Source: an uncultured Acidobacteriaceae bacterium
GTDB taxonomy: Bacteria; Acidobacteriota; Terriglobia; Terriglobales; Acidobacteriaceae
NCBI GenBank assembly: GCA_963821315.1
Contig: CAWGDP010000009.1
Location: 89,454 to 153,453, forward strand
Length of the DNA: 64,000 nt
Direction: 5' to 3'
Position 1 is the stretch's first letter. Each line of letters begins with the position of its first letter. The translations under genes and the position numbers were made by a program. A model generated the notes under the pieces. The model saw only the letters and a program-made list of their open reading frames with translations, was not told the DNA's origin and did no database searches. Shown in pieces: positions 1-46,369 of the stretch.

Positions 1-2225
1 TCGCCCCAGCCGCGCCAATTGGCGCACTGCACAAAGCGATTGGCGGCATCGACCGCGTGGTCGATCGCCTTGCTATAGCGGCCCTCGGTCAGGGCAATGC
101 GGGCCGAGGTCGCGGTCGAATAAGCCAGTTCCAGGCGCAGGCCATGAAACGCCTGGATGGCCTTGGCGCGACGCAACAGGTGCGATGCCCTCTCCAGGCG
201 ATCGGGAAGATCCGAGAGCAGATCCGCCCAGTCGCGCAGCACCGCCGGGAGCGCGAAGTACCAACGCGAATCCCGTTCCGTACTTGTTTCCAGATCCGCC
301 AGCGCCAGCCGGAAGAGCGTCTCCGCCGTATCTCCCTGACCCCGGTCCTGCATGAGGTAGGCGATTTGGTGTTTCGCCCGGCCGGTTTCCCGCAGAGACG
401 GACCCTCCGCCGGCTGAGCGTGCCGGGCAAGGCGGTAGAAGTCTTCTGCGTGCCGAGGCTGGTCAGCCGGCGCCAGCGGGCCGATGGTTGCCAGCAGGCT
501 GTCAGGGAGAGGAATCTCCGGATACCGGTTGACGAAGTTGCCCATCAGCAACAGTCGTTCCTGCAGGCTGTGGATGCGGGCAATGTATTGCAGGGCGTGC
601 TCCGGCTGTTCGCCGCGAACGCACGCATAGTAGGCGGTATGCAGGTACTCGTCGCCGCAATCATCCGTCAGCCCGGGGCACGCCGCCAGCGCCTCCTGTA
701 ACAGATTCTGTTGCACCAGCTCGATCAGGCTCGGCTTGTCCGGCTGGGGGCCGAGGAGGAGCAGAAATGTCAGGCTGGCGTCGGGTTGGATGGTTTGCAG
801 AAATTCCACGTGGCGCGGGGCGGCATTCGACCACACGATCAGCGGCGACCCGAAGCGCACGATTTGATTGAAGAACCACACCAGCCGGTCGGCGGCATCG
901 GTTTGCGGTGCATGCTCCTGCGGCAGGCCAAGCTCACGTAACGTGGCGTCGTCGGCCAACAAGCCGGCGCTCTCGTCAATGCGGATCACATTGCCGCGCC
1001 ACGCCTTGAACACCGCAGCCGGGAGTTGGGTGTAGGCCACGGCGGACGCATCCGCCTGATCCTGTGCACCCGTTTGCAATTGACTTACCTGGGTGGCGAC
1101 GCTACTCCAGAAGGTGGCGGCCGCATCATCAGCAACCACCGCGGGTACATTATCCGCCGGCTCCGCCAGCCAGCCCGCGGCAGGCACTCTTGGCCCGTTC
1201 AGCGGCAGCGCGGTCAGGTCCAGGGGATTGCGCAGATACACGGTCATCGAAGCCCAGTTGGCGAACGCGAACTCCGTTGCCACCTTGGCGCACCGTATAC
1301 GCAACAGGGCCGACTCCGGATCCCGGCTGGCCGCCGCGCCGAAGACATCGGCATAAAACGCTTCGGCGATGGACCCCGCGTCTTCGTTGTGCAACTCGGC
1401 CAGGAACGACAGAACCATCCCCACCCCGTTGCGGTGGAGGCACAGCGCGGGTGATATGCCCCACGAGTCCGCCGCGCCTGAGTAGCAACTCCATAGGAGC
1501 GCAAGCTTGGCCTGGCGGAAGGTCTCGCCCATCGTGGTCGCCGGCACATCGCCGGTCTCGCTCAGAACAGCGTTTCCGTGCTCCTCGATGTGCAGAATGT
1601 CGATGTCACTCACCAGCCTGCCGGCAGCAAACTCCGCAGCCGCATCCCGCTGGACGATCTCCGGCGTGCGGGCGAGAGCCTCCAGCGCGGCGGCGGTTCG
1701 GCGGTTGGTGTCGCTGCCCACCACCTTGAGCAGCTGCAGATGGCTGCCGGTGGAGAGCGGCAGCTGGTTAAAGTCTTTCCAGCAGTGGACGACTGACAGG
1801 TCCTGAGCCGCAAGCAGGTTTCCCGATTCGTCGTAGAGCGCTCCCCAGGGCAGCAGATGCAACTCCGGGCGTGTGGTCTGGATCACCAGCCGCCGCGGCG
1901 TTTTCGCGTTGTTAAGGAACTCCCGCAGAGCCGGGCTCAACTGTGCCAGCGACTGGTACAACATACGCGCCACGGCTCGTATCGCCGTGGCGGGGCGGTA
2001 TCCGGTCTTTTCGTCGCGGTTAACGTTACAGGCGCGCAACTGGCGCATAAACTCCCGCCACTGCTCGTCATTGATGGGTGACTGGAAGCTCTGCGCCGGA
2101 TAGGTCTTGCCGGCGATGGATAAAATCACTCCGAATTCCCGCTCGCAGGCCAGCGGCAGGCTGCTCTCCATGCCGCCGCTGGGCAGCTCCAGTTGTACAA
2201 TCGCAGTTTTCCGAAACACCGGCAT
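1..2225 (-). CDS. CHAT-domain (clan CD cysteine protease) protein with C-terminal TPR-like helical repeats; partial, 3' end beyond the left window edge
   Basis: Absent from the ORF track because it has no stop inside the window. I translated the minus strand by hand: ATG at 2225-2223 (MPVFRKTAIVQLELPSGG...) stays open in one frame to position 1 (...AIDHAVDAANRFVQCANWRGWG). No other listed minus-strand ORF in 1-2225 uses this frame. CHAT-like motifs: RRLVIQTTRPELHLLPWGALYD, DILHIEEHGN (His) and KLALLWSCYSGAAD (Cys). The distal part is helical-repeat/TPR-like (AKHQIAYLMQDRGQGDTAETLFRLALADLE; LELAYSTATAARIALTEGRYSKAIDHAV). Confidence 0.8.
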   Translation of the reverse strand, partial: MPVFRKTAIVQLELPSGGMESSLPLACEREFGVILSIAGKTYPAQSFQSPINDEQWREFMRQLRACNVNRDEKTGYRPATAIRAVARMLYQSLAQLSPALREFLNNAKTPRRLVIQTTRPELHLLPWGALYDESGNLLAAQDLSVVHCWKDFNQLPLSTGSHLQLLKVVGSDTNRRTAAALEALARTPEIVQRDAAAEFAAGRLVSDIDILHIEEHGNAVLSETGDVPATTMGETFRQAKLALLWSCYSGAADSWGISPALCLHRNGVGMVLSFLAELHNEDAGSIAEAFYADVFGAAASRDPESALLRIRCAKVATEFAFANWASMTVYLRNPLDLTALPLNGPRVPAAGWLAEPADNVPAVVADDAAATFWSSVATQVSQLQTGAQDQADASAVAYTQLPAAVFKAWRGNVIRIDESAGLLADDATLRELGLPQEHAPQTDAADRLVWFFNQIVRFGSPLIVWSNAAPRHVEFLQTIQPDASLTFLLLLGPQPDKPSLIELVQQNLLQEALAACPGLTDDCGDEYLHTAYYACVRGEQPEHALQYIARIHSLQERLLLMGNFVNRYPEIPLPDSLLATIGPLAPADQPRHAEDFYRLARHAQPAEGPSLRETGRAKHQIAYLMQDRGQGDTAETLFRLALADLETSTERDSRWYFALPAVLRDWADLLSDLPDRLERASHLLRRAKAIQAFHGLRLELAYSTATSARIALTEGRYSKAIDHAVDAANRFVQCANWRGWG

Positions 2226-2319
2226 GGAGACACGCTACCATACGGTTCCTTGCCGTTGCCGGATGGTGTACCCTTGCCGTGCTCCTACCTGCAAAGTGGG
2301 CAAAGGATGGATTTCGCAA

Positions 2320-3135
2320 ATGAATGTGCTGAAGAAAAAAGATCCCAGTGTGACCTACCTGAACAAGCTGGGCTACAACGTGGTTAAGTTGCCCCGCACC
2401 GGCATCGAGCCCATGGACGTCATCGGCCACGACCAGACCATGCAGTGGTTGGGCCCCATCGATTCCATCTGGAACAGCGCCATCCCCAAGCCGCAGACCG
2501 GTCCGCCCAAACCCGCCTCTGCCGTGAACGGCCAGAAGAGCGATGCTCTCGACCTCTCCGTCGGGCTCAGCATCCTGGGCAACACCCTGGCTGCGTTTGG
2601 TGTTTCCGTGCCCTCGCTCGACGTGGCCTACAAGAGCGCCCATGCGGTGCAATTCAGCTACAGCAACGTCACCAGCATCTCGGTGGCGCCCTTCGCTGCC
2701 GGCAGTTATCTGGCCAAGGGAGAGCTGCAGAGCGATAACCCCTCGGTGAAGAATTATTTCCTGAGCGGCCAGGCGACCGCCTACCTCATCACCGAGGTAC
2801 TCAAATCCAACTCGCTGACCGTCACCGCCACCGACTCTCACGGTACTGCCGTTGCCGTGGATCTCTCCGCCTTCCAGGGCGTCGATGCCAAAGTCGGCAT
2901 CAAGCCGTCGAGCGCGGGGAACTCCACCATCAGCTACACCGGTCCGGAGGCCATCACCTTCGGATTCGCTGTGCAACAGATCGCCCGCGAGGGGGATCAG
3001 TGGACGCTGCATGGTGTCGCCCCATCGGGGGACATTGCCTTCGGCTTCTTGGGCACTGGCGCAGGGCAGGGAAGCGGCGCGCCGGCCCCCACCATCTTCG
3101 ACACGGGCGCCCTTGACTGCCGTCTGGAGATCTGA
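2320..3135 (+). CDS. bacterial gasdermin (bGSDM) homologue, 271 aa
   Basis: In-frame ATG at 2320 within ORF 2107..3135, with AAGGA about 12 nt upstream. The N-terminus MNVLKKKDPSVTYLNKLGYNVVKLPRTGIEPMDVIG matches the bGSDM N-terminal signature as I recall it (basic stretch, then LGY..v.LPr..I.P...). It is followed by SAVNGQKSDALDLSVGLSILGNTLAAFG and YKSAHAVQFSYSNVTSISV. Size and placement directly upstream of a protease gene are typical of bGSDM operons. Confidence 0.75.
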   Translation: MNVLKKKDPSVTYLNKLGYNVVKLPRTGIEPMDVIGHDQTMQWLGPIDSIWNSAIPKPQTGPPKPASAVNGQKSDALDLSVGLSILGNTLAAFGVSVPSLDVAYKSAHAVQFSYSNVTSISVAPFAAGSYLAKGELQSDNPSVKNYFLSGQATAYLITEVLKSNSLTVTATDSHGTAVAVDLSAFQGVDAKVGIKPSSAGNSTISYTGPEAITFGFAVQQIAREGDQWTLHGVAPSGDIAFGFLGTGAGQGSGAPAPTIFDTGALDCRLEI

Positions 3136-3140
3136 GGCTC

Positions 3141-4580
3141 ATGAGCACCACCCCACTTCCTGTGCCGCTGCTGGTCCACGCCCCGACCGGGGCGCCGGCC
3201 CCGGCCCTTCCTCCAGAAAGCCTGCCGCATCTCAGCGGCGACCTGCCGGGCGCAGCGCAGCGCAGCATCGACTCCACTCATCTGGGCACGGACTCGAGCG
3301 TTGGCGATCCCGACGATCTCACCCAGACAGGCTGGTGCATCCTGTTCGCGTCGGACGCTGATCCCGCGATCAAGGCCCAGTTGCAGCCGCTGATCGATCT
3401 TCGCCGCAAGCAGGTCAACGACGATCACTTATTCCAGGTCTTCGAGGGAAATGACAGCGGAGTCCGCCCTAACCAGACTGCCGATGACTGGGTCCAATAC
3501 CGCGGCGTTTCGCTTACGGCTAAAGTCGATCCCACTGCGGGCGTTCCCTACTACGTGCTGATCGTCGGTCAACCCGACCGCATCCCCTTCGATTTCCAGA
3601 ATCTGCTGAAGATGCAGTGGGCCGTGGGCCGGCTGGCCTTTGATGACATCGAGGACTACGGACGCTACGCCCGGGCCGTGGTGCAGTACGAGGACCCTGG
3701 CTTTGTTCCGGCGCAGCGAAAGAACGCCGCAGTCTGGGTTACGCGTAACGATAACGACGTGGCCACCGCCATGCTCTCCAACGCCATCTGTCCCAATTTC
3801 CTCGACAACATTAAACCCCTCGGCTCCGGTCCGGCGAAGTTCACGCTGGATGCGTTCACTTACTCGACAGCCAAGCAGGCCACCAAGCAACAACTGATCG
3901 ATATCCTCCGCGGCAACCTGCCCGGCGGTCCGCCGGCCGTCCTCTTTACCGGCTCCCACGGGGTCGAGTATCCGATGGGTGACCCCGCGCAGCGCCGCAT
4001 GCAGGGCTCGCTGCTTACCCAGGAGTGGGTGCGAGACACGGCCGCCGGTCCCAACAACCTCTTTTCCGCCGAAGATATTCCTGCCGATGCCAAGCTTCAG
4101 GGGACCATGGCATTTCTCTTCGCCTGTTATAGCGGTGGTTGCCCTGCGGACAACAACTACTACTTCCATCCTGACGGCTCAAAGATCCCGGTCGCACCGG
4201 CTCCGCTCATCGCGGCGCTCCCCCAGGCATTGCTTAGCCATGGCGCCCTCGCGGTCATCGCACATGTCGACCTGGCCTTCCCTTATGCTTTCCAGGACGT
4301 CACTGGGACGCCCCAGCTTCAGTCTCTGCGCGATCCGCTCACCTATCTCATGTTCGGCCGCCGCGCCGGTTACGCCGTCGATTCGCTCAGCGACCGTTGG
4401 AGCCGTTTGTGCTCTCAGCTCATCGAGTCGGAGGCGCGCACCGTCTCCACCGACCCGAACGCGACTCCGCCGTTAAGTGCTGCCGCACGCACTGTCCTGA
4501 CAATAGCCCGCGACGACGCGCGCAACTACATCGTCCTTGGCGACCCAGCCACGCAGCTGCGCGTTAGAGATCTCAAGTGA
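3141..4580 (+). CDS. clan CD cysteine peptidase (gingipain/C25-like, caspase fold), 479 aa
   Basis: ORF 3141..4580 starts 5 nt after the gasdermin stop. Catalytic-dyad-like motifs: AVLFTGSHGVEY (His-Gly) and MAFLFACYSGGC (Cys). C25-like landmarks as I recall them: PYYVLIVGQPDRIPF and the C-terminal NYIVLGDPATQLRV. Confidence 0.7.
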   Translation: MSTTPLPVPLLVHAPTGAPAPALPPESLPHLSGDLPGAAQRSIDSTHLGTDSSVGDPDDLTQTGWCILFASDADPAIKAQLQPLIDLRRKQVNDDHLFQVFEGNDSGVRPNQTADDWVQYRGVSLTAKVDPTAGVPYYVLIVGQPDRIPFDFQNLLKMQWAVGRLAFDDIEDYGRYARAVVQYEDPGFVPAQRKNAAVWVTRNDNDVATAMLSNAICPNFLDNIKPLGSGPAKFTLDAFTYSTAKQATKQQLIDILRGNLPGGPPAVLFTGSHGVEYPMGDPAQRRMQGSLLTQEWVRDTAAGPNNLFSAEDIPADAKLQGTMAFLFACYSGGCPADNNYYFHPDGSKIPVAPAPLIAALPQALLSHGALAVIAHVDLAFPYAFQDVTGTPQLQSLRDPLTYLMFGRRAGYAVDSLSDRWSRLCSQLIESEARTVSTDPNATPPLSAAARTVLTIARDDARNYIVLGDPATQLRVRDLK

Positions 4581-4674
4581 TACTTGAAGGTTCGAATCAT
4601 AAGCTGTCCAAGTTAACGGGCAAACGGCCTTTTGGACGGCGCAACTTGCTGGAAACAGAGTCAGCACAAAAGCC

Positions 4675-4735
4675 GGGTGCCCCATTCAAGCCGCATTTTG
4701 GCTTGAGTGGGATACCACAGCACTCGACGACCCTA
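4675..4735. repeat. REP-like hairpin element (family gggtgccccattcaagcc...ggcttgagtgggataccaca); second copy at 61275..61335
   Basis: Near-identical ~46-60 nt sequence at both sites in the same orientation. It has an internal stem, ccattcaagcc / ggcttgagtgg. Confidence 0.8.
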
Positions 4736-4785
4736 AAGCAGGCTTCTCAGTAGGCTGTTTATGGCACCATATGCCAGAGGTATTT

Positions 4786-5706
4786 ATGGCAGTCAGCATC
4801 GAGGAACTGAACCAACGCTTCGCCATTGCCGGGGCAGCGACAATCACCGCCGGCAACGGCGGCTTGCCGCGGGTAAGCGTGAATACCCCCGCAGCCACTG
4901 CGGAGATCTACCTGCACGGTGCGCAGCTCACCTCCTGGCAGCCGGCGGGCGCCGAAGAGGTGATCTTCTTGAGCGGGCAATCCCAGTGGCAGCCGGGGCG
5001 CGCGATCCGCGGAGGTATCCCCGTCTGCTTTCCCTGGTTTCGCAACAAGGCGGATGACCCCAAAGCACCCTCGCACGGGTTCGTGCGGACCAAGGCATGG
5101 CAACTCGACTCCGTCACCCGCAACGGCGACACGGTAACGATAAGCCTGTCGACCGCGAGCGACGAGGCGACGCGAGCCTGGTGGCCGCACGACTTTCTGC
5201 TTGCGCACCGGGTGACCGTTGGCGCGGAGCTGGTTCAGGAGTTGACGGTAAGCAACACCGGCGCCGCGCCCCTGCGCTTTGAAGAGGCTCTGCACACCTA
5301 CTACCGCGTCGGTGGGGCCGAGTCCGTTCGCATCCAGGGTCTTGGGGGCGTGGACTATCTCGACAACACCGATGGCAACCGCGAGAAACGGCAGGAGGGC
5401 GACATTGTTTTCACCGCGGCCACCGATCGCGCCTACGTAAAGACCACGCATGCGGTGGAGATTCTGGACCCCATCCTGCGCCGGCGCATCCGGCTGGAGA
5501 AGGAGAACTCCCGCACCACCGTGGTTTGGAATCCCTGGGTAGAGGGCGCGCATGCGTTGCCGGATATGGCAGACGACGAGTGGCGAGCGATGGCCTGCGT
5601 TGAGGCCAGCAACATGCGCGCCTTCGCTGTCGACCTGGCGCCTGGGGAGCAGCACACCATGAAGACCAGCATCCGGGTCGCTGCCGCGCCGGGTGATAGC
5701 TTTTGA
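4786..5706 (+). CDS. D-hexose-6-phosphate mutarotase (aldose 1-epimerase family)
   Basis: ORF 4771..5706. I prefer the ATG at 4786, which has AGAGG 5 nt upstream. Family-typical N-terminus as I recall it: LHGAQLTSWQPAG..EVIFLS......G.AIRGGIPVCFPWF......P.HGFVR. Confidence 0.75.
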   Translation: MAVSIEELNQRFAIAGAATITAGNGGLPRVSVNTPAATAEIYLHGAQLTSWQPAGAEEVIFLSGQSQWQPGRAIRGGIPVCFPWFRNKADDPKAPSHGFVRTKAWQLDSVTRNGDTVTISLSTASDEATRAWWPHDFLLAHRVTVGAELVQELTVSNTGAAPLRFEEALHTYYRVGGAESVRIQGLGGVDYLDNTDGNREKRQEGDIVFTAATDRAYVKTTHAVEILDPILRRRIRLEKENSRTTVVWNPWVEGAHALPDMADDEWRAMACVEASNMRAFAVDLAPGEQHTMKTSIRVAAAPGDSF

Positions 5707-7723
5707 TGGAAAATTTCGATATTTGCCGCCCTTATCTCCTCTTGCCTGTTGCCTGCCGCAGCGCAGGCAACGCGCAGCGCCATCGACCCGTTGCTCAAGC
5801 AGCCACTGCAGAGCCAGGTACTGGTGGCCGAAGAGATGCGGCAATTTTTGCTGAAGCGCGTGCCCGCTCTGCCGGCGATAAGCAGTCCAGCAGAGTGGCA
5901 GAAGGAGGCGGAGCGGCTGCGCGAGCACGAGTTAGCAGTGATCTATCATGGCTGGCCGCGGGAGTGGGTGGAAGCGAAACCAAACTTCGAAAAGGTGGCG
6001 GAGATCACGCGGCCGGGGTATCGCATCGTCAAGCTTCGTTATGAGATTGTCCCCGGGTTTACCTCCACAGCGCTGCTGTATGAACCCGAGCATATGACAG
6101 GGAAGATGCCCGCGATCCTGGATGTCAACGGCCATGGCGCCGGCGGAAAGGCCGTGGAGCACAAGCAGAAGCGATGCATCAACCAGGCGCGCCGCGGCAT
6201 CCTGGCGCTTAGCCTGGAGTGGATCGGTATGGGCGAGTTAAGCAGCCCAGACAATGAGCACAACCAGGCCGGGCTGCTCGACCTGGCTGGGGCCAACGGA
6301 GTCGGCTTGTTTTACCTGGCCATGCGCCGCGGCCTCGACTATCTCTATGACGATCCGCAAGTGGACAGAACGCGCATCGGCATGACGGGCCTGTCGGGCG
6401 GCGGGTGGCAGACGATGTTGCTCAGCACCCTGGATACCCGGGTCGGTCCTTCCGTACCGGTGGCGGGCTTTAGTTCGCTGACCACGGCCATCGAACATCC
6501 GGACTATGCCGGCGATGCGGAGCAGAATGGCGCGGACATGCGTTCGGTCGCCGACTACGCGCACTTGATGGCGTTGCGCGCGCCACGGCCGACTCTGCTG
6601 ATCTACAACGCGATGGATGACTGCTGCTTTCGGGCGGGTGTGGTCAAACAGGGCGTCTACACCGATATAAAACCCTTCTTTGCCTTGATGGGCAGCCCGG
6701 GAAATCTGCAGTGGTACGACGAATGAGAACCCAGGCACACACAACTATCAGATAGACAGCCGGGAGCAGTCCTACCGCTTCTTTGACCAGGCCTTTCAGC
6801 TACAGGCCAGCGATAAGGAGGACGCGGATACGGATACCGAGGTGCAGACGGCCGCGGATCTTGCGGTCGGCATACCGGCAAATAACCTCACGGTCGTCGG
6901 CCTGGCGCGTCAGTTAGCGCAGGGGATCCATCACGATGCTCCGGCGCAGGCGGATGCTGCCTGGGTGGAGAAGCAGCGGCAGCAACTGCGCGAGGTGGTG
7001 CGATTTGATCCAGTCACGGTTACCCATGCGTGGCCGGTGACTGAGACCCACGAAAGAGGCCTGGAGAGCCGCGGGTACCGGTTTGAATTCAGCAACGGGT
7101 TATCCGCACCCGGGGTGCTTCTGGAGTCGACGGTGAGGCCGGAGAACGGAGGCACGACGCTGCTGATCTCCGACTCAGGGCGAGCCTCCATGTTGGTCGA
7201 GGCAGCGAACGATGTAGGCCGTGGACAGCGCGTCCTGGTGTTGGACCCGTTGCTATTCGGCGAGAACATCCCGGGCACGGGCGATGACCTTTCGGGTTTG
7301 GCGCAGATGGTGAACACCGTGGGAGCCCGGCCGCTGGGGGTGGACGCGGCGCAGGTGGCTGCCGTTGCCCGCTGGCTGCAAGAGGACGCGATCGATGGCA
7401 GTGCAACGCCGGGCGCCCGGATCATGCCTCCGAGCCACCCCGCGCCGGTGCGCGTGGTCACGAACGGCCCCCGCGGGGAGACGGTCGCTATCATCTCCGC
7501 GGCGATCGTGCCCCAGCTGTACTCCTCCATTGAGGCGCGCCACGCGATTGCCAGCCTGGGCGATTTGTTTACCCATCCGCTTGATTATCATGACGCGCAA
7601 GAGGTGATGTGTCTCGATCTCTATCGCGACTTTGACTTCAACACCTTGCGTCTCATCGCTGCGCCGGTCAACATCGACCTGGCAGGCAAAGATCCGCGAG
7701 CCGATCTTCTGGTAATCGCTTAG
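5706..7723 (+). pseudogene. secreted alpha/beta hydrolase (acetyl-xylan-esterase/dienelactone-hydrolase-like), frame-disrupted
   Basis: Track fragments are 5749..6726 and 6842..7723. The nucleophile elbow is GLSGGGW. The second frame is already open from 6689 and reads NENPGTHNYQIDSREQSYRFFDQAF straight across the first frame's stop (..LQWYDE*), so there is a 1-nt frame break within 6689-6726. A signal peptide (M)KISIFAALISSCLLPAAAQA is readable only if one G after the ATG at 5706 is skipped. Confidence 0.6.
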
Positions 7724-8066
7724 GGTTCAGGCAATTCAGATCGAGGGCCTCGATCAGAGGGGCTTCCCATCGGCGGCTGGAAAACATGTAAGGCTGGCGG
7801 CCGGTGGAGAGGCGAACGTCTGCGTTGTCCAGTTCCTTGGCGGTGGCAAATCCAAAGAGGCGCAGATGGTCGCGAAGAAATTTCCAGGATGGAAAGGAAA
7901 AGATCCGGTCTGCCTCTTCGGCCACGGGAGACTTCAGCACCAGGATGATTCCTGGTTGGGACCGTGTACTGGTGCGCGTCACTCTGGGTTTAATGATCGC
8001 AGTGTATTTGCCGGCGGGGATCCGGATGGCTGTGCGGGTGGTTGAGCTGGTCATGGGGCTGTTCAT
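7668..8066 (-). CDS. hypothetical protein (132 aa)
   Basis: ORF 7668..8066. Its ATG overlaps the stop of the upstream dehydratase as ATGA (8066-8063), which suggests translational coupling. No recognisable motif. The 3' end overlaps the convergent hydrolase gene by 56 nt, so the true stop is uncertain. Confidence 0.4.
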
Positions 8067-10121
8067 GGAGCTGGTCTCTTGACAGCTATCGGCGCAAGCG
8101 ACCAGTCGAATGAATTTAAGCCACAGTTGTCTTGACTTGAGACAGTCCTCTTAATTTTGCCCAGAGCCGGCTGCAGCCGGGAGACGATGGCGTCTACGTC
8201 GTAGACGCATCCGCCCCAAACCCCTCCACTGGCCTGCACCAGGGCGGCCCACAGCCGGGTGTCGTCGGGAAGCGCGGGATGCGGCCTGAGATCAGCGCGG
8301 GGAGCTCGCGCGGCCAGCCGGCGCGCGCCTTCTTCCGGGCTGAAGATCTGTTGTGCATCGCCCACCAGGTTGATGGAGCCGGTCAGCTTCTGCCGGTCGA
8401 TGACAATCTCAATCTGGTCGCCGTCCAGGAGCTTGCCGATGGCGCCTCCGGCAAGCGCTTCGGGCGAGATATGCCCGATGCAGGCGCCGGTGGAGACGCC
8501 GCTGAAGCGGGCGTCGGTGAGCAGGGCCACGTGCTTGCCGGAAGGGAGCCACTTGAGGGCGGAGGTGATCTGATAGATCTCCTCCATGCCCGCGCCCGCG
8601 GGGCCGCAGCATACCAGCACCATGACGTCGTGCTTCCCGATCTCGCCGTTCTTGATGGCGTGGATGGCCGCCTCTTCGGAGACGAAGACCCGGGCCGGAC
8701 CGTGGTGGCGAAAGACTCCGTCGGCATCGATGAGTGAGGGATCGATGGAGGTGCTCTTGACCACCGAGCCCTCGGGGGCGAGGTTGCCCACGGGGAAACA
8801 GACGGTGGGGGTGAGTCCGCTGGAGCGGGCGCGATCGGGATCCATGATGACGTCGTCGGGATCGATGCCGTCGCGGGCGCGGAGATTCTTGCGCAGTTCG
8901 TGGCGGCGTGGGGAGTTCTCCCACCAGTCGAGACAGCTATCGAGGGTTTCTCCGGATACCGTCTTCACCTGGGTGTTGAGCAGGCCTGCTCTTCGCAGGT
9001 GGAGCATCACTTCGGGTAATCCGCCGGCAAGAAAAACTTGAACGGTCGCGAAGTTGCGCGGGCCGTTGGGCAAAGCGTCGACCAGGCGGGGAATTTCCCG
9101 GTTGATGTGGGCCCAGTCGGCTGCGACCGGGCGCTTGAGTCCTGCGGAGTAGGCAATCGCCGGCAGGTGCAGCAGCAGGTTGGTGGATCCGCCGAAGGCA
9201 GCGTGGGCCACCATGGCATTGTCGATCGAGGCCTGGGTGAGAATGTCGCGGGTTCCTATCTGTAACTGATGCAGGCGCAGGATGGCGCTGGCGGAACGGC
9301 GGGCGGCATCGAGCCAGATGGGCGCGCCTGAGGGGGCGAGCGCGGTGTGGGGGAGGGATAGCCCCAGGGCTTCTCCTATTACCTGTGCGGTCGCAGCTGT
9401 GCCCAGAAACTGGCAGCCGCCGCCGGGAGTGGCGCAGGCGCGGCAGCCCATCTCGGCTGCGGTTTCGAGGGTGATCTGGTTTTGCGCGTAGCGGGCGCCG
9501 ATGGTCTGTACCTTGCCTGCATCTTCGCCTGATTCGGGCAGCAGCGTGACTCCGCCGGGGATGAGGATGGTCGGCAGGGGGCCCGGCGGAAGCCAGCGCC
9601 ATCATCATGGCGGGCAGTCCCTTGTCGCAGGTGGCGATGCCGATCACGCCCATCCTGGTGGGCAGGGAACGCATCAGGCGGCGCAGCACGATGGCCGCAT
9701 CATTGCGAAAGGGGAGGGAGTCGAGCATGCCGGTGGTGCCCTGGGTACGGCCGTCGCAGGGGTCGGTGCAGGCGCCGGCAAAGGGAATGGCATCGAGGGA
9801 TTTCAAGGTGATGGCTGCTTCGGCCACCAGGGCGCCCAGTTCCCAGTGCCCGGTATGAAAGCCGAGGGCGATGGGTGTTCCATCGGGGGCGCGCAGGCCG
9901 CCATGGGTGCTGAGGATGAGGACTTCGGAGCCCAGCAACTTTTGCGGCTCCCAACCCATGCCTGCGTTTTGGCTTAGGCCGAAGAGATTGCCTGAGGGTG
10001 CGTTGAGCAGCATCTCCGGGGTGATGGGCAGCAGGCCGCGGGGACCGGGCGCGTGGGTGGCTACGTCATCCAGCTTGAGGGTGCTGGTTTCGAGGACCGA
10101 GGAAAGGGAAATGGTAGGAAT
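8063..10121 (-). pseudogene. IlvD/Edd-family dehydratase, YjhG/YagF (xylonate dehydratase)-like, frame-disrupted
   Basis: Fragment 8937..10013 carries the N-terminal part (..[17 protein letters not shown]). Fragment 8063..9451 carries the rest ([19 protein letters not shown]...FGGSTN...[22 protein letters not shown]). The frames join at a G5 run on the + strand (9577..9581): reading ...ALASAGP then [23 protein letters not shown] restores the protein. Conserved N-terminal residues [17 protein letters not shown] lie upstream of the first ATG (10013). The only start-like codon there is ATT at 10121, behind AGGAGA. Confidence 0.8.
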
Positions 10122-10216
10122 GGCGGTCTCCTGTCACGGTCAATTGTAAGATGCCGGGATGGTTGAGGGACTGGAGCGCCGTCAGCAGGACGGCTCGACT
10201 ACTTTAAAGTCGGGCC

Positions 10217-10425
10217 GCGAAAACGCTTTGTACGAAGGGCACGGCTTTAGCCGTGCCGTAAAAAGGGACAGCAATGAGGGCTTTAGCCCCTGAGGTACGT
10301 TTTTCCAAGCTTGTGCCTGCACGGAATTACTGTGAAAAACCTTACCTCAGCGGCTAAAGCCACCCCCGCGCAGTACGTTTACGGCACGGCTGAAGCCGTG
10401 CCCTTCGTACAAAGTGTTTTTCCGC
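10217..10425. repeat. MITE-like ~210-bp palindromic element, copy 1 (copy 2 at 46112..46323)
   Basis: Terminal inverted repeats are gcgaaaacgctttgtacgaagggcacggc and gccgtgcccttcgtacaaagtgtttttccgc. Nested hairpins include cacggctttagccgtg and cctgaggta/tacctcag. By eye, about 90% identical to the 46.1-46.3 kb copy. Confidence 0.8.
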
Positions 10426-10477
10426 AACCTGTTTAGTCGTGCCATAAACGCGCAAAAGGCCTGGGCTTTAGCGGCGC

Positions 10478-46111: not shown

Positions 46112-46323
46112 TCCGAAAAACTCACTTAACGAAGGGCACGGCTTTAGCCGTGCCGTAAAAAGCTGCAGCAATGAGGGCTTTAGCCCCTGAGGTCCGCTTT
46201 TCCACGCTTGTACCTGCGCGGAAATTACCGTGAAAAACGTACCTCAGCGGCTAAAGCCGCCCCCGCGCGGTACATTTACGGCACGGCTGAAGCCGTACCC
46301 TTCGTACAAAGCGTTTCTCCGCA
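46112..46323. repeat. MITE-like ~210-bp palindromic element, copy 2, plus a solo end-hairpin at 46050..46078
   Basis: It aligns along its whole length with 10217..10425 (acgaagggcacggctttagccgtgccgtaaaaag...tttacggcacggctgaagccgt.cccttcgtacaaag). Confidence 0.8.
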
Positions 46324-46369
46324 GCCTGTAGGCCCTGGAGGTACGTCTTTCACCTTTTCTGCAGCATGG

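Follow-up and report, generated by a model that had tools for sequence, protein, structure and literature searches.

Bacterial gasdermins (bGSDMs) are the evolutionary root of pyroptosis, and to our knowledge one system in which such a gasdermin is attended by several proteases, that of Lysobacter, has been dissected so far. How might a bacterial gasdermin be controlled when two distinct clan-CD proteases are encoded beside it? This question is raised by a three-gene locus of about 5.4 kb in an uncultured soil member of the Acidobacteriaceae, which lies at the left end of the window (the whole stretch of DNA analysed here, 64,000 nucleotides of contig CAWGDP010000009.1 of GenBank assembly GCA_963821315.1). 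The locus encodes a protease with a CHAT domain and TPR-like repeats (CHATL), a bGSDM and a C25-like cysteine protease of the gingipain family (C25L). The gasdermin family and the gasdermin-plus-protease type of system are already known in outline (Johnson et al., 10.1101/2021.06.07.447441), and multi-protease gasdermin systems and CHAT-to-caspase cascades are known in principle. From sequence comparison, CHAT proteases are functionally paired with C25-like proteases in a conserved manner, and a gasdermin often, though not always, joins them as a third component. For the window locus we propose, at what we judge to be slightly less than an even chance, a relay in which CHATL activates C25L and C25L releases gasdermin pores, as a cell-suicide system of the abortive-infection type.

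A bacterial gasdermin with a conserved C-terminal tail

The gasdermin gene occupies positions 2320–3135 of the plus strand (271 amino acids, start ATG at 2320, stop TGA at 3135), with an AAGGA Shine–Dalgarno sequence about 12 nt 5' of the start codon. The original prediction, made from the sequence of the window, had read this frame as a bGSDM from three quoted motifs, and the coordinates, the motifs, profile searches and homology to PDB entries all bear it out. Against curated profiles the E values range from 1e-54 to 1e-62, with 3.3e-62 for the PADLOC bGSDM profile, while the NCBIfam equivalog NF051890 (prok_gasdermin) is matched with 183.7 bits at a cut-off of 100. An identical protein carries a precomputed match to Pfam PF26164 (Bact_GSDM). 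With the Vitiosangium bGSDM, whose structure is solved, the protein shares about 50% identity, and it aligns with both its inactive form (PDB entry 7n51; E = 4.3e-46, residues 7–248) and its active pore form (PDB entry 8sl0; E = 7e-45, residues 7–230). By sequence, the product is unambiguously a bacterial gasdermin, and it is the predicted pore-forming effector of the locus.

Beyond the part that aligns to the 8sl0 core (237 residues) lies a tail of 34 residues (238–271, positions 3031–3132, plus strand; DIAFGFLGTGAGQGSGAPAPTIFDTGALDCRLEI), which is presumed to be the autoinhibitory peptide. It consists of a variable Gly/Ala/Pro linker followed by the terminal motif xVFDTGxx[DE]CRL[DE]I. This motif is kept across the window-type relatives described below, and the last 14 residues of the tail are conserved. 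The Vitiosangium gasdermin is toxic when cut back to residue 237 (PMC10153256). As this residue corresponds approximately to residue 238–239 of the present protein, cleavage is expected at around residues 232–257. Neither the exact cleavage site nor the P1 preference can be deduced from sequence. A GAPAP string that occurs both in the N-terminal extension of C25L and in the gasdermin tail was considered as a common cleavage motif and rejected: it is not conserved in homologues, and its occurrence in both proteins is therefore ascribed to chance in Ala/Pro-rich linkers.

Two clan-CD proteases flank the gasdermin

Both protease genes adjoin that of the gasdermin. The C25L gene (positions 3141–4580, plus strand, 479 amino acids) starts 5 nt past the gasdermin stop codon. 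The CHATL gene (positions 3–2225, minus strand) starts 94 nt upstream of the gasdermin gene with an ATG at 2223–2225 and is cut by the left edge of the window, which thus holds the first 741 of its 842 codons. The remainder is supplied by a metagenome contig (L002) that is 98.5% identical over 10.7 kb and prolongs the locus leftwards, an extension that the original prediction had suggested. The complete CHATL of 842 amino acids is found at L002:6557–9085 and is followed by a convergent gene for a TIR_2-domain protein.

The description of C25L in the original prediction as a gingipain-like protein with FTGSHG and FACYSGG motifs agrees with both profile and fold comparison. C25L matches Pfam PF01364 (Peptidase_C25) marginally, with 26 bits at a cut-off of 23, over profile positions 108–374 of 374. 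Its AlphaFold model (mean predicted local distance difference score, pLDDT, 81; pTM 0.87) has gingipain K as its best Foldseek match (PDB entries 4rbm/6i9a; E = 2.7e-7, TM score 0.46–0.49), followed by TPR-CHAT and then separase, all of clan CD. The putative catalytic dyad is formed by His273 in FTGSHG (codon 3957–3959) and Cys329 in FACYSGG (codon 4125–4127), and both residues are invariant in 23 homologues with identities down to 58%. Searches of the PDB by sequence, whether with the single sequence or with a family profile, give no meaningful match to any gingipain, and the link to these enzymes is seen by fold comparison only.

C25L thus shares with the gingipains Kgp and RgpB the fold, the C25 profile and the His-then-Cys order on a clan-CD scaffold, at an identity of no more than about 10%. 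Its N-terminus carries no hydrophobic segment or signal, the protein ends with the catalytic domain, and the gingipain-type signal peptide, pro-domain, Ig-like domain and C-terminal domain for type IX secretion are all lacking. In the absence of a signal peptide and secretion domains, C25L is predicted to be cytoplasmic and to share the compartment of the gasdermin. In contrast to the gingipains, it is also operon-linked to a predicted intracellular substrate. Judged by its sequence, C25L is a cytoplasmic C25-like protease and not a gingipain. Neither Pfam nor the model reveals a recognisable sensor domain. Residues 7–20 are conserved and modelled with a pLDDT of about 89, and may represent a zymogen-like N-terminal segment.

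For CHATL, the assignment comes from the fold. The original prediction had described a divergent protein of more than 741 amino acids, 94 bp upstream, with CHAT-type HIEEHG and WSCYSG motifs and TPR-like repeats; the motifs are present and the fold is that of TPR-CHAT and separase. The AlphaFold model (pLDDT 84.5) finds TPR-CHAT/Csx29 of Craspase (PDB entries 7zoq and 8d9f; E = 5e-6) as its best Foldseek match, followed by separase. The helical C-terminal half matches the TPR proteins BtubC, KLC1 (kinesin light chain) and Rap with E values of 6.5e-5 to 1e-3, and Pfam gives no TPR match. His216 (in HIEEHG, codon 1578–1580) and Cys247 (in WSCYSG, codon 1485–1487) are invariant in 23 homologues that are 53–96% identical, and hhalign places this dyad in register with that of bona fide CHAT proteins, at a weak score (E = 0.012). 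By its modelled fold, CHATL is clearly a CHAT protease with TPR.

The clan-CD protease domain, which holds the invariant dyad and is the best conserved portion of CHATL, spans residues ∼1–350 (positions 1176–2225, minus strand). The non-catalytic part (positions 3–1127, minus strand), defined by the secondary structure of the model and the Foldseek matches to TPR proteins, contains an α/β middle domain (residues 367–500, nt 726–1127) and TPR-like helical repeats (residues 501–741, nt 3–725) that continue beyond the window. The middle and TPR domains of the model are candidates for a sensor or partner-binding part. The mean identity is 0.71 in the protease domain versus 0.58 in the non-catalytic part.

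Purifying selection acts on each of the three genes, most strongly on C25L (ratio of nonsynonymous to synonymous substitution rates, dN/dS, of 0.055–0.06), less on the gasdermin (0.09–0.13) and least on CHATL (0.14–0.16). PADLOC and NCBIfam give no match for C25L or CHATL, and PADLOC-DB v2 recognises the gasdermin alone among the genes of the locus.

The 94 bp between the divergent CHATL and gasdermin genes (positions 2226–2319) are presumed to hold both promoters. Among eight relatives, with coding regions that are 76–98% identical at the protein level, this segment contains long invariant stretches, which suggests conserved promoter or operator elements. A simple consensus scan of the segment for σ70 sites found none, and a scan of positions 2000–5000 found no terminator; both are uninformative for an acidobacterium. 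An operator-like inverted repeat suspected by eye in this segment was dropped, as a repeat finder reported none.

CHAT and C25-like proteases form a conserved pair

A scan of one genome per species gave 216 relatives of C25L, and the best 80 were analysed with 8 kb flanks. These loci were read using six-frame open reading frames (ORFs), phmmer and hidden Markov model searches and a gene caller based on GC content at third codon positions, which reproduced the annotation of L002. A gene with a CHAT domain lies within 8 kb of C25L in 74 of the 80 loci; of the six loci without one, two are truncated by the end of the contig. A CHATL gene of the window type lies divergently beside C25L in 44, a gasdermin gene is present in 37 and a gene for a hydrolase-like protein (family F4) is present in 36. 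For comparison, a bGSDM was found in just 50 of 38,167 genomes by Johnson et al. (10.1101/2021.06.07.447441).

The 44 window-type loci all belong to Acidobacteriota, and their C25L proteins are 52–98% identical to that of the window. The gasdermin gene stands between the two protease genes in 26 of them. In the other 18 CHATL and C25L are directly adjacent, with no gasdermin between or near them (L010–L015, L017, L023, L024, L027, L032, L035, L036, L039, L041, L045, L047 and L049). These 18 include Paracidobacterium acidisoli, the nearest cultured relative with homologues (L014; CHATL at 5404–7944 on the minus strand and C25L at 8001–9446 on the plus strand), as well as a whole clade at 79–82% identity. 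The gasdermin-less pairs are mostly intact, with one gene frameshifted in three loci from metagenome-assembled genomes (MAGs; L036, L039 and L047). Since these 18 loci keep the pair, the two proteases must have a gasdermin-independent function or other substrates.

A different CHAT gene is found in 28 of the 80 loci, encoding either a CHAT-(P-loop-like)-HEAT protein of about 1180 amino acids or a CHAT protein with a separate nSTAND1-WD40 NTPase. Three further loci encode Pfam CHAT proteins, in two cases a fusion of clostripain (C11) with CHAT and in one a fusion of CHAT with Peptidase_C25. In the last of these, both domains are joined in a single polypeptide of 1243 amino acids encoded beside a C25L gene in a Bradyrhizobium MAG (L077:11259–14990, minus strand). 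Fusions of Peptidase_C11 (clostripain) with CHAT (L044:11008–14070, minus strand) and of CHAT with an nSTAND1 NTPase (L073:9438–11717, plus strand) likewise lie beside C25L genes. The remoter loci come from Bryobacterales, Vicinamibacterales, Variovorax, Cupriavidus, Bradyrhizobium, Chloroflexia, Acidimicrobiia and Gemmatimonas. Their operons run from an optional gasdermin gene through the CHAT-(P-loop-like)-HEAT gene and the F4 gene to C25L as the last gene; in Cupriavidus the order is CHAT, nSTAND1-WD40 NTPase, F4 and C25L. A neighbourhood of F4-like, C25 and CHAT genes also occurs on Sinorhizobium terangae and Nostoc plasmids; its proteins are annotated by NCBI as 'C25 family cysteine peptidase' and as 'CHAT domain-containing protein'.

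Identity to the window proteins is correlated between C25L and CHATL (r = 0.94) and between C25L and the bGSDM (r = 0.95). The distribution is patchy, extends over at least six phyla and to plasmids, and indicates horizontal transfer. The original prediction had placed the divergent CHAT gene together with the gasdermin and C25-like genes in a two-protease system; the co-occurrence counts and the fusion uphold this, and by sequence comparison the CHAT gene is not a chance neighbour.

A proposed protease relay

In the resting cell, the gasdermin would be kept inactive by its C-terminal peptide of 30-odd residues and both proteases would be latent. CHATL would sense and initiate: on recognising a trigger, most probably a protein of phage origin or a disturbed host protein, its TPR and middle domains would switch on the CHAT protease domain. 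This domain would then process or otherwise activate the small, domain-poor C25L, which is co-transcribed and probably translationally coupled with the gasdermin. The cut made by C25L would fall in the gasdermin linker that precedes the conserved C-terminal motif, and the freed N-terminal domain would insert into the inner membrane and assemble into large oligomeric pores, so that the cell dies before the phage cycle is complete. In the gasdermin-less relatives, the protease pair would presumably act on other substrates in an executioner-like manner. What we infer comprises the trigger, the CHAT-then-C25L order, where the gasdermin is cut, the formation of pores and the role against phage.

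Four observations favour this order. Domains of sensor type (TPR or HEAT, or else a STAND NTPase encoded separately) always go with the CHAT partner and never with C25L. C25L evolves most slowly (dN/dS 0.055) and CHATL fastest. The gasdermin and C25L genes are codirectional and separated by 5 nt. Finally, two loci (L046 and L082) have gasdermin–F4–C25L operons with no CHAT gene detected within 8 kb; for a further gasdermin operon (L078), the CHAT-like ORF is some 6 kb distant and belongs to a separate, convergent unit. Against the background of the known protease relay and the replaceable effectors described below, a model in which CHATL senses and initiates, C25L executes and the gasdermin forms the pore is the best supported.

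Alternative readings of the locus

Several points weigh against the relay. The order of the two proteases is drawn from architecture and analogy, and the sole bGSDM activator with biochemical proof is the CHAT protease of Runella, which cleaves its gasdermin in vitro (10.1101/2021.06.07.447441). CHAT proteases are also the commonest neighbours of bGSDMs (23 of 59; Johnson et al., 10.1101/2021.06.07.447441). The nearest characterised gasdermins (Vitiosangium, Archangium and Ramlibacter) are accompanied by a single CHAT protease and no C25L, and the distant operons ordered bGSDM–CHAT–F4–C25L place the gasdermin gene against the CHAT-HEAT gene. In view of the Runella activator and the CHAT neighbours of the nearest gasdermins, CHATL could itself be the direct gasdermin protease. 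C25L would then be a second output, as a promiscuous executioner, or a regulator that processes or restrains CHATL. The gasdermin-less pairs fit such a C25L with substrates of its own, like PCaspase or the type IV Thoeris protease discussed below, and they also argue that gasdermin cleavage is not the sole or necessary function of the pair. We nevertheless consider direct cleavage by CHATL unlikely: in window-type loci it is C25L that is codirectional with the gasdermin and 5 nt away, with CHATL on the opposite strand, and the operons of L046 and L082 have their gasdermin with C25L. In addition, BLASTP and hhalign detect no similarity of CHATL to the Vitiosangium CHAT protease, a result that counts against direct cleavage as in Vitiosangium-type systems and also against the relay. 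As the architecture differs too, the idea that CHATL is an orthologue of that protease was rejected.

The two proteases might instead be independent activators, each responding to a different trigger and cutting the gasdermin alone. Some bGSDMs indeed have more than one adjacent protease (Johnson et al., 10.1101/2021.06.07.447441), one of the two Lysobacter proteases is dispensable for the phages tested (PMC10312443), and in the present locus both dyads are conserved and both protease genes are under purifying selection. However, with no recognisable sensor domain it is hard to envisage how C25L would be triggered on its own, and the near-obligate co-occurrence of CHAT and C25, their fusion and the gasdermin-less pairs all point to joint work rather than redundancy, which makes this arrangement improbable. 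Taken together, reverse or parallel arrangements of the proteases are a sizeable, if still doubtful, possibility.

The pair could also be a chromosomal module of Acidobacteriota and other soil bacteria for regulatory or developmental proteolysis outside phage defence, with the gasdermin as a passenger or as the agent of programmed lysis for another end, for instance to release cell contents or in kin-related death. This would suit the 18 gasdermin-less pairs of the window type, the partly conserved chromosomal neighbourhoods in Acidobacteriaceae, where a Ser/Thr kinase-TPR gene adjoins in 40 loci, and the absence of a PADLOC model for either protease. No relatives of C25L were found on IMG/VR viral contigs, and the right flank of the window holds ordinary metabolism genes and no large defence island. 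On the other hand, neighbours are often of defence type, for example the TIR protein beside CHATL and a PD-(D/E)XK nuclease and WYL protein on the Sinorhizobium plasmid; the partner architectures (STAND NTPase, WD40, HEAT and TPR) are typical of immune sensors; and the horizontal transfer indicated by the patchy spread likewise speaks against this reading. We give a non-defence function only a small chance.

The gasdermin itself raises a further difficulty for the relay. Palmitoylation of an N-terminal cysteine (C3/C4) is required for the toxicity of the Vitiosangium, Nostoc and Runella bGSDMs (10.1101/2021.06.07.447441; PMC10153256), and the C4A mutation inactivates the Vitiosangium protein (PMC10153256). 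This cysteine is absent here: the N-terminus reads MNVLKKKDPS (positions 2320–2349), with a lysine at the position of Vitiosangium Cys4. The locus could therefore be a decaying or inactive remnant with a gasdermin that no longer forms pores, a view to which the frameshifts in the surrounding window would also lend themselves. Yet Met-x-x-x-Lys-Lys-Lys-Asp-Pro occurs throughout the Terriglobia clade, and its Lys-Lys-Lys-Asp-Pro part is kept in about 25 species-level relatives; remoter C25L-linked gasdermins retain MxxC[KT]DP. The N-terminal cysteine is conserved in most bGSDMs but not in all (Johnson et al., 10.1101/2021.06.07.447441), so that its loss does not exclude membership of the family. 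Conservation and the low dN/dS of the gasdermin, lower still for C25L, argue that the cysteine-less N-terminus is a functional variant and not a sign of decay. One may speculate that the Lys-Lys-Lys basic patch replaces the lipid anchor.

As to the frameshifts, twelve indels of 1–2 bp distinguish the window from L002 (at 4591–4660, 6718, 7297, 7698–7728, 8163 and 9585), and none falls within positions 1–4580. They split a Peptidase_S9-like gene (5749–6726 and 6842–7723; an intact 520 amino acids in L002) and an IlvD/Edd dehydratase gene (8063–10013; an intact 620 amino acids in L002), and are probably assembly errors or very recent pseudogenisation. The original prediction had taken intact genes among frame-broken neighbours as a signal. 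This argument falls away: the same neighbours are intact in L002, the differences being indels of 1–2 bp, and their broken frames say nothing about the locus. We regard a decayed locus as very improbable, and the non-defence and decayed readings have little likelihood even when combined.

The remaining points that weigh against the relay concern the assignments themselves. Profile searches of the kind that the original prediction had suggested are passed by the gasdermin (PADLOC and NCBIfam) and by C25L (Pfam C25), whereas the 741-residue CHATL fragment scores 20.5 bits against Pfam PF12770 (CHAT), below the cut-off of 24. The full-length CHATL of L002 gives no match to Pfam CHAT at E ≤ 0.01, though a few CHATL homologues carry a precomputed PF12770 match. 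Genes in the related loci were called heuristically. Long-read soil MAGs make up most of the set of 80, and some of them carry frameshifts in the genes under study (e.g. L018, L020 and L038). Flanks of 8 kb may also miss partner genes.

Comparison with known systems

The window locus shares its gasdermin family with the single-protease bGSDM systems of Runella zeae (Roc-COR-CHAT) and Vitiosangium (CHAT), and the same logic would be expected, with cleavage leading to pores and cell death. It differs from them in its two distinct clan-CD proteases and in a gasdermin without the palmitoylated cysteine. CHATL, with CHAT at the N-terminus and TPR at the C-terminus and its gene on the divergent strand, also differs from the Vitiosangium CHAT protease. 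The C25/gingipain family is not mentioned by Johnson et al. (10.1101/2021.06.07.447441). In open-access papers and preprints we found no description of a C25/gingipain-family protease in a gasdermin system, nor of the CHAT and C25-like pairing across phyla with or without gasdermin, which agrees with the statement in the original prediction that the arrangement was not known to be characterised.

The Lysobacter-type CARD gasdermin system (Wein et al., PMC10312443) likewise comprises several genes, among them those for two proteases and for a distinct sensor. Nucleases or phospholipases take the place of the gasdermin in homologous operons (PMC10312443), and this replacement of the effector parallels the gasdermin-less protease pairs found here. 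The Lysobacter proteases are, however, trypsin-like serine proteases, and the sensor is an NLR-like STAND ATPase that acts via CARD-like domains (PMC10312443), whereas Pfam, PADLOC and NCBIfam profiles find no trypsin-like or NTPase domain in the three window genes.

For a relay from a CHAT protease to a second protease, the closest bacterial precedent in mechanism is SAVED-CHAT, which cleaves and activates the caspase-like protease PCaspase (Steens et al., 10.1101/2023.06.23.546230). There the sensor, a SAVED domain fused to CHAT, binds cyclic triadenylate (cA3) made by CRISPR, in a hybrid of type III-B CRISPR and cyclic oligonucleotide-based antiphage signalling (CBASS), whereas the sensor of CHATL would be its TPR part. 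PCaspase is of the C14 caspase type and its output is broad proteolysis; at the window locus the second protease is C25-like and the output would be the gasdermin. CHATL has no match to the PADLOC SAVED_CHAT profile and no CRISPR or CBASS genes lie at the locus, and the resemblance is one of mechanism only.

In structure, CHATL is closest to the Craspase TPR-CHAT protein (Csx29) of type III-E CRISPR. Both combine TPR and CHAT, and the CHAT protease of Csx29 is switched by a partner and cuts one specific substrate. The order is TPR then CHAT in Csx29 and the reverse in CHATL, the identity is about 14%, and no gRAMP/Cas7-11 or Csx30 is found near CHATL. In type IV Thoeris, a two-gene TIR-caspase operon, a stand-alone caspase-like protease can kill by broad proteolysis (10.1101/2024.10.24.620036). 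Here a TIR_2 gene is convergent to CHATL, and the matches of its product to ThsB-type Thoeris profiles are weak.

Neighbouring genes and repeats

The F4 proteins (about 445 amino acids) are encoded directly upstream of C25L in loci outside the Acidobacteriaceae and are absent from window-type loci. They contain a GHSFG serine-hydrolase-like motif and show weak similarity to α/β-hydrolases (for example L054:6589–7947, L078:6619–8001 and L086:7467–8795, all on the plus strand), and may be a further effector or an adaptor. A second family, F9 (200–250 amino acids), is encoded directly downstream of CHATL on the same strand in twelve loci (L003:3884–4519, minus strand, and 11 others). The common strand and the gaps of −34 to +200 nt suggest a CHATL–F9 operon in many relatives. 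F9 is absent from L002 and the window and has no Pfam match, and neither F4 nor F9 is matched in PADLOC or NCBIfam.

The TIR_2-domain protein (362 amino acids; L002:4914–6002, plus strand) has a transmembrane segment and a C-terminal domain of no assigned family. Its gene lies about 860 bp past the left edge of the window and is followed further left in L002 by sugar-metabolism genes. It accompanies CHATL throughout the clade of the window, takes other positions in several loci and is absent from most CHATL loci. The Ser/Thr protein kinase-TPR fusion (about 750 amino acids; e.g. L003:9836–12067, minus strand) is convergent to C25L in most loci of Acidobacteriaceae, about 40 loci in all, and often has a small cupredoxin-like gene with it. 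Neither the window nor L002 contains the fusion gene, an aldose epimerase gene coming next after C25L there, and its presence elsewhere may reflect conserved synteny only.

A palindromic repeat of about 230–290 bp, resembling miniature inverted-repeat transposable elements or repetitive extragenic palindromes and matching itself in both orientations, occurs in the window at 10211–10443 and 46115–46329. A further copy (L002:6125–6411) lies between the TIR gene and CHATL, at the site that F9 occupies in other genomes.

Implications

The locus is a member of a large uncharacterised group in which gingipain-family and CHAT proteases occur nearly always together, with a gasdermin in about half. Being a compact system of three genes, it is amenable to heterologous expression. 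A natural comparison is offered by loci that have the protease pair together with a gasdermin and loci that have it alone, and the Terriglobia proteins are a test case for whether bacterial gasdermin pores need lipidation.

We hold it to be possible, but rather doubtful, that CHAT and C25-like proteases are a widespread bacterial initiator–executioner caspase-like pair, present in six or more phyla and on plasmids, and that the Terriglobia gasdermins form pores without a palmitoyl anchor by way of their Lys-Lys-Lys patch. In such a pair, a sensor CHAT protease would activate the C25-like protease, which would cut the gasdermin or, where there is none, kill by proteolysis. A third clan-CD family would then be added to gasdermin activation. 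If the two proteases do act in series, initiator–executioner caspase-like cascades upstream of gasdermin would have arisen in bacteria, as a counterpart of the caspase-8/9, caspase-3 and GSDME axis of animals.

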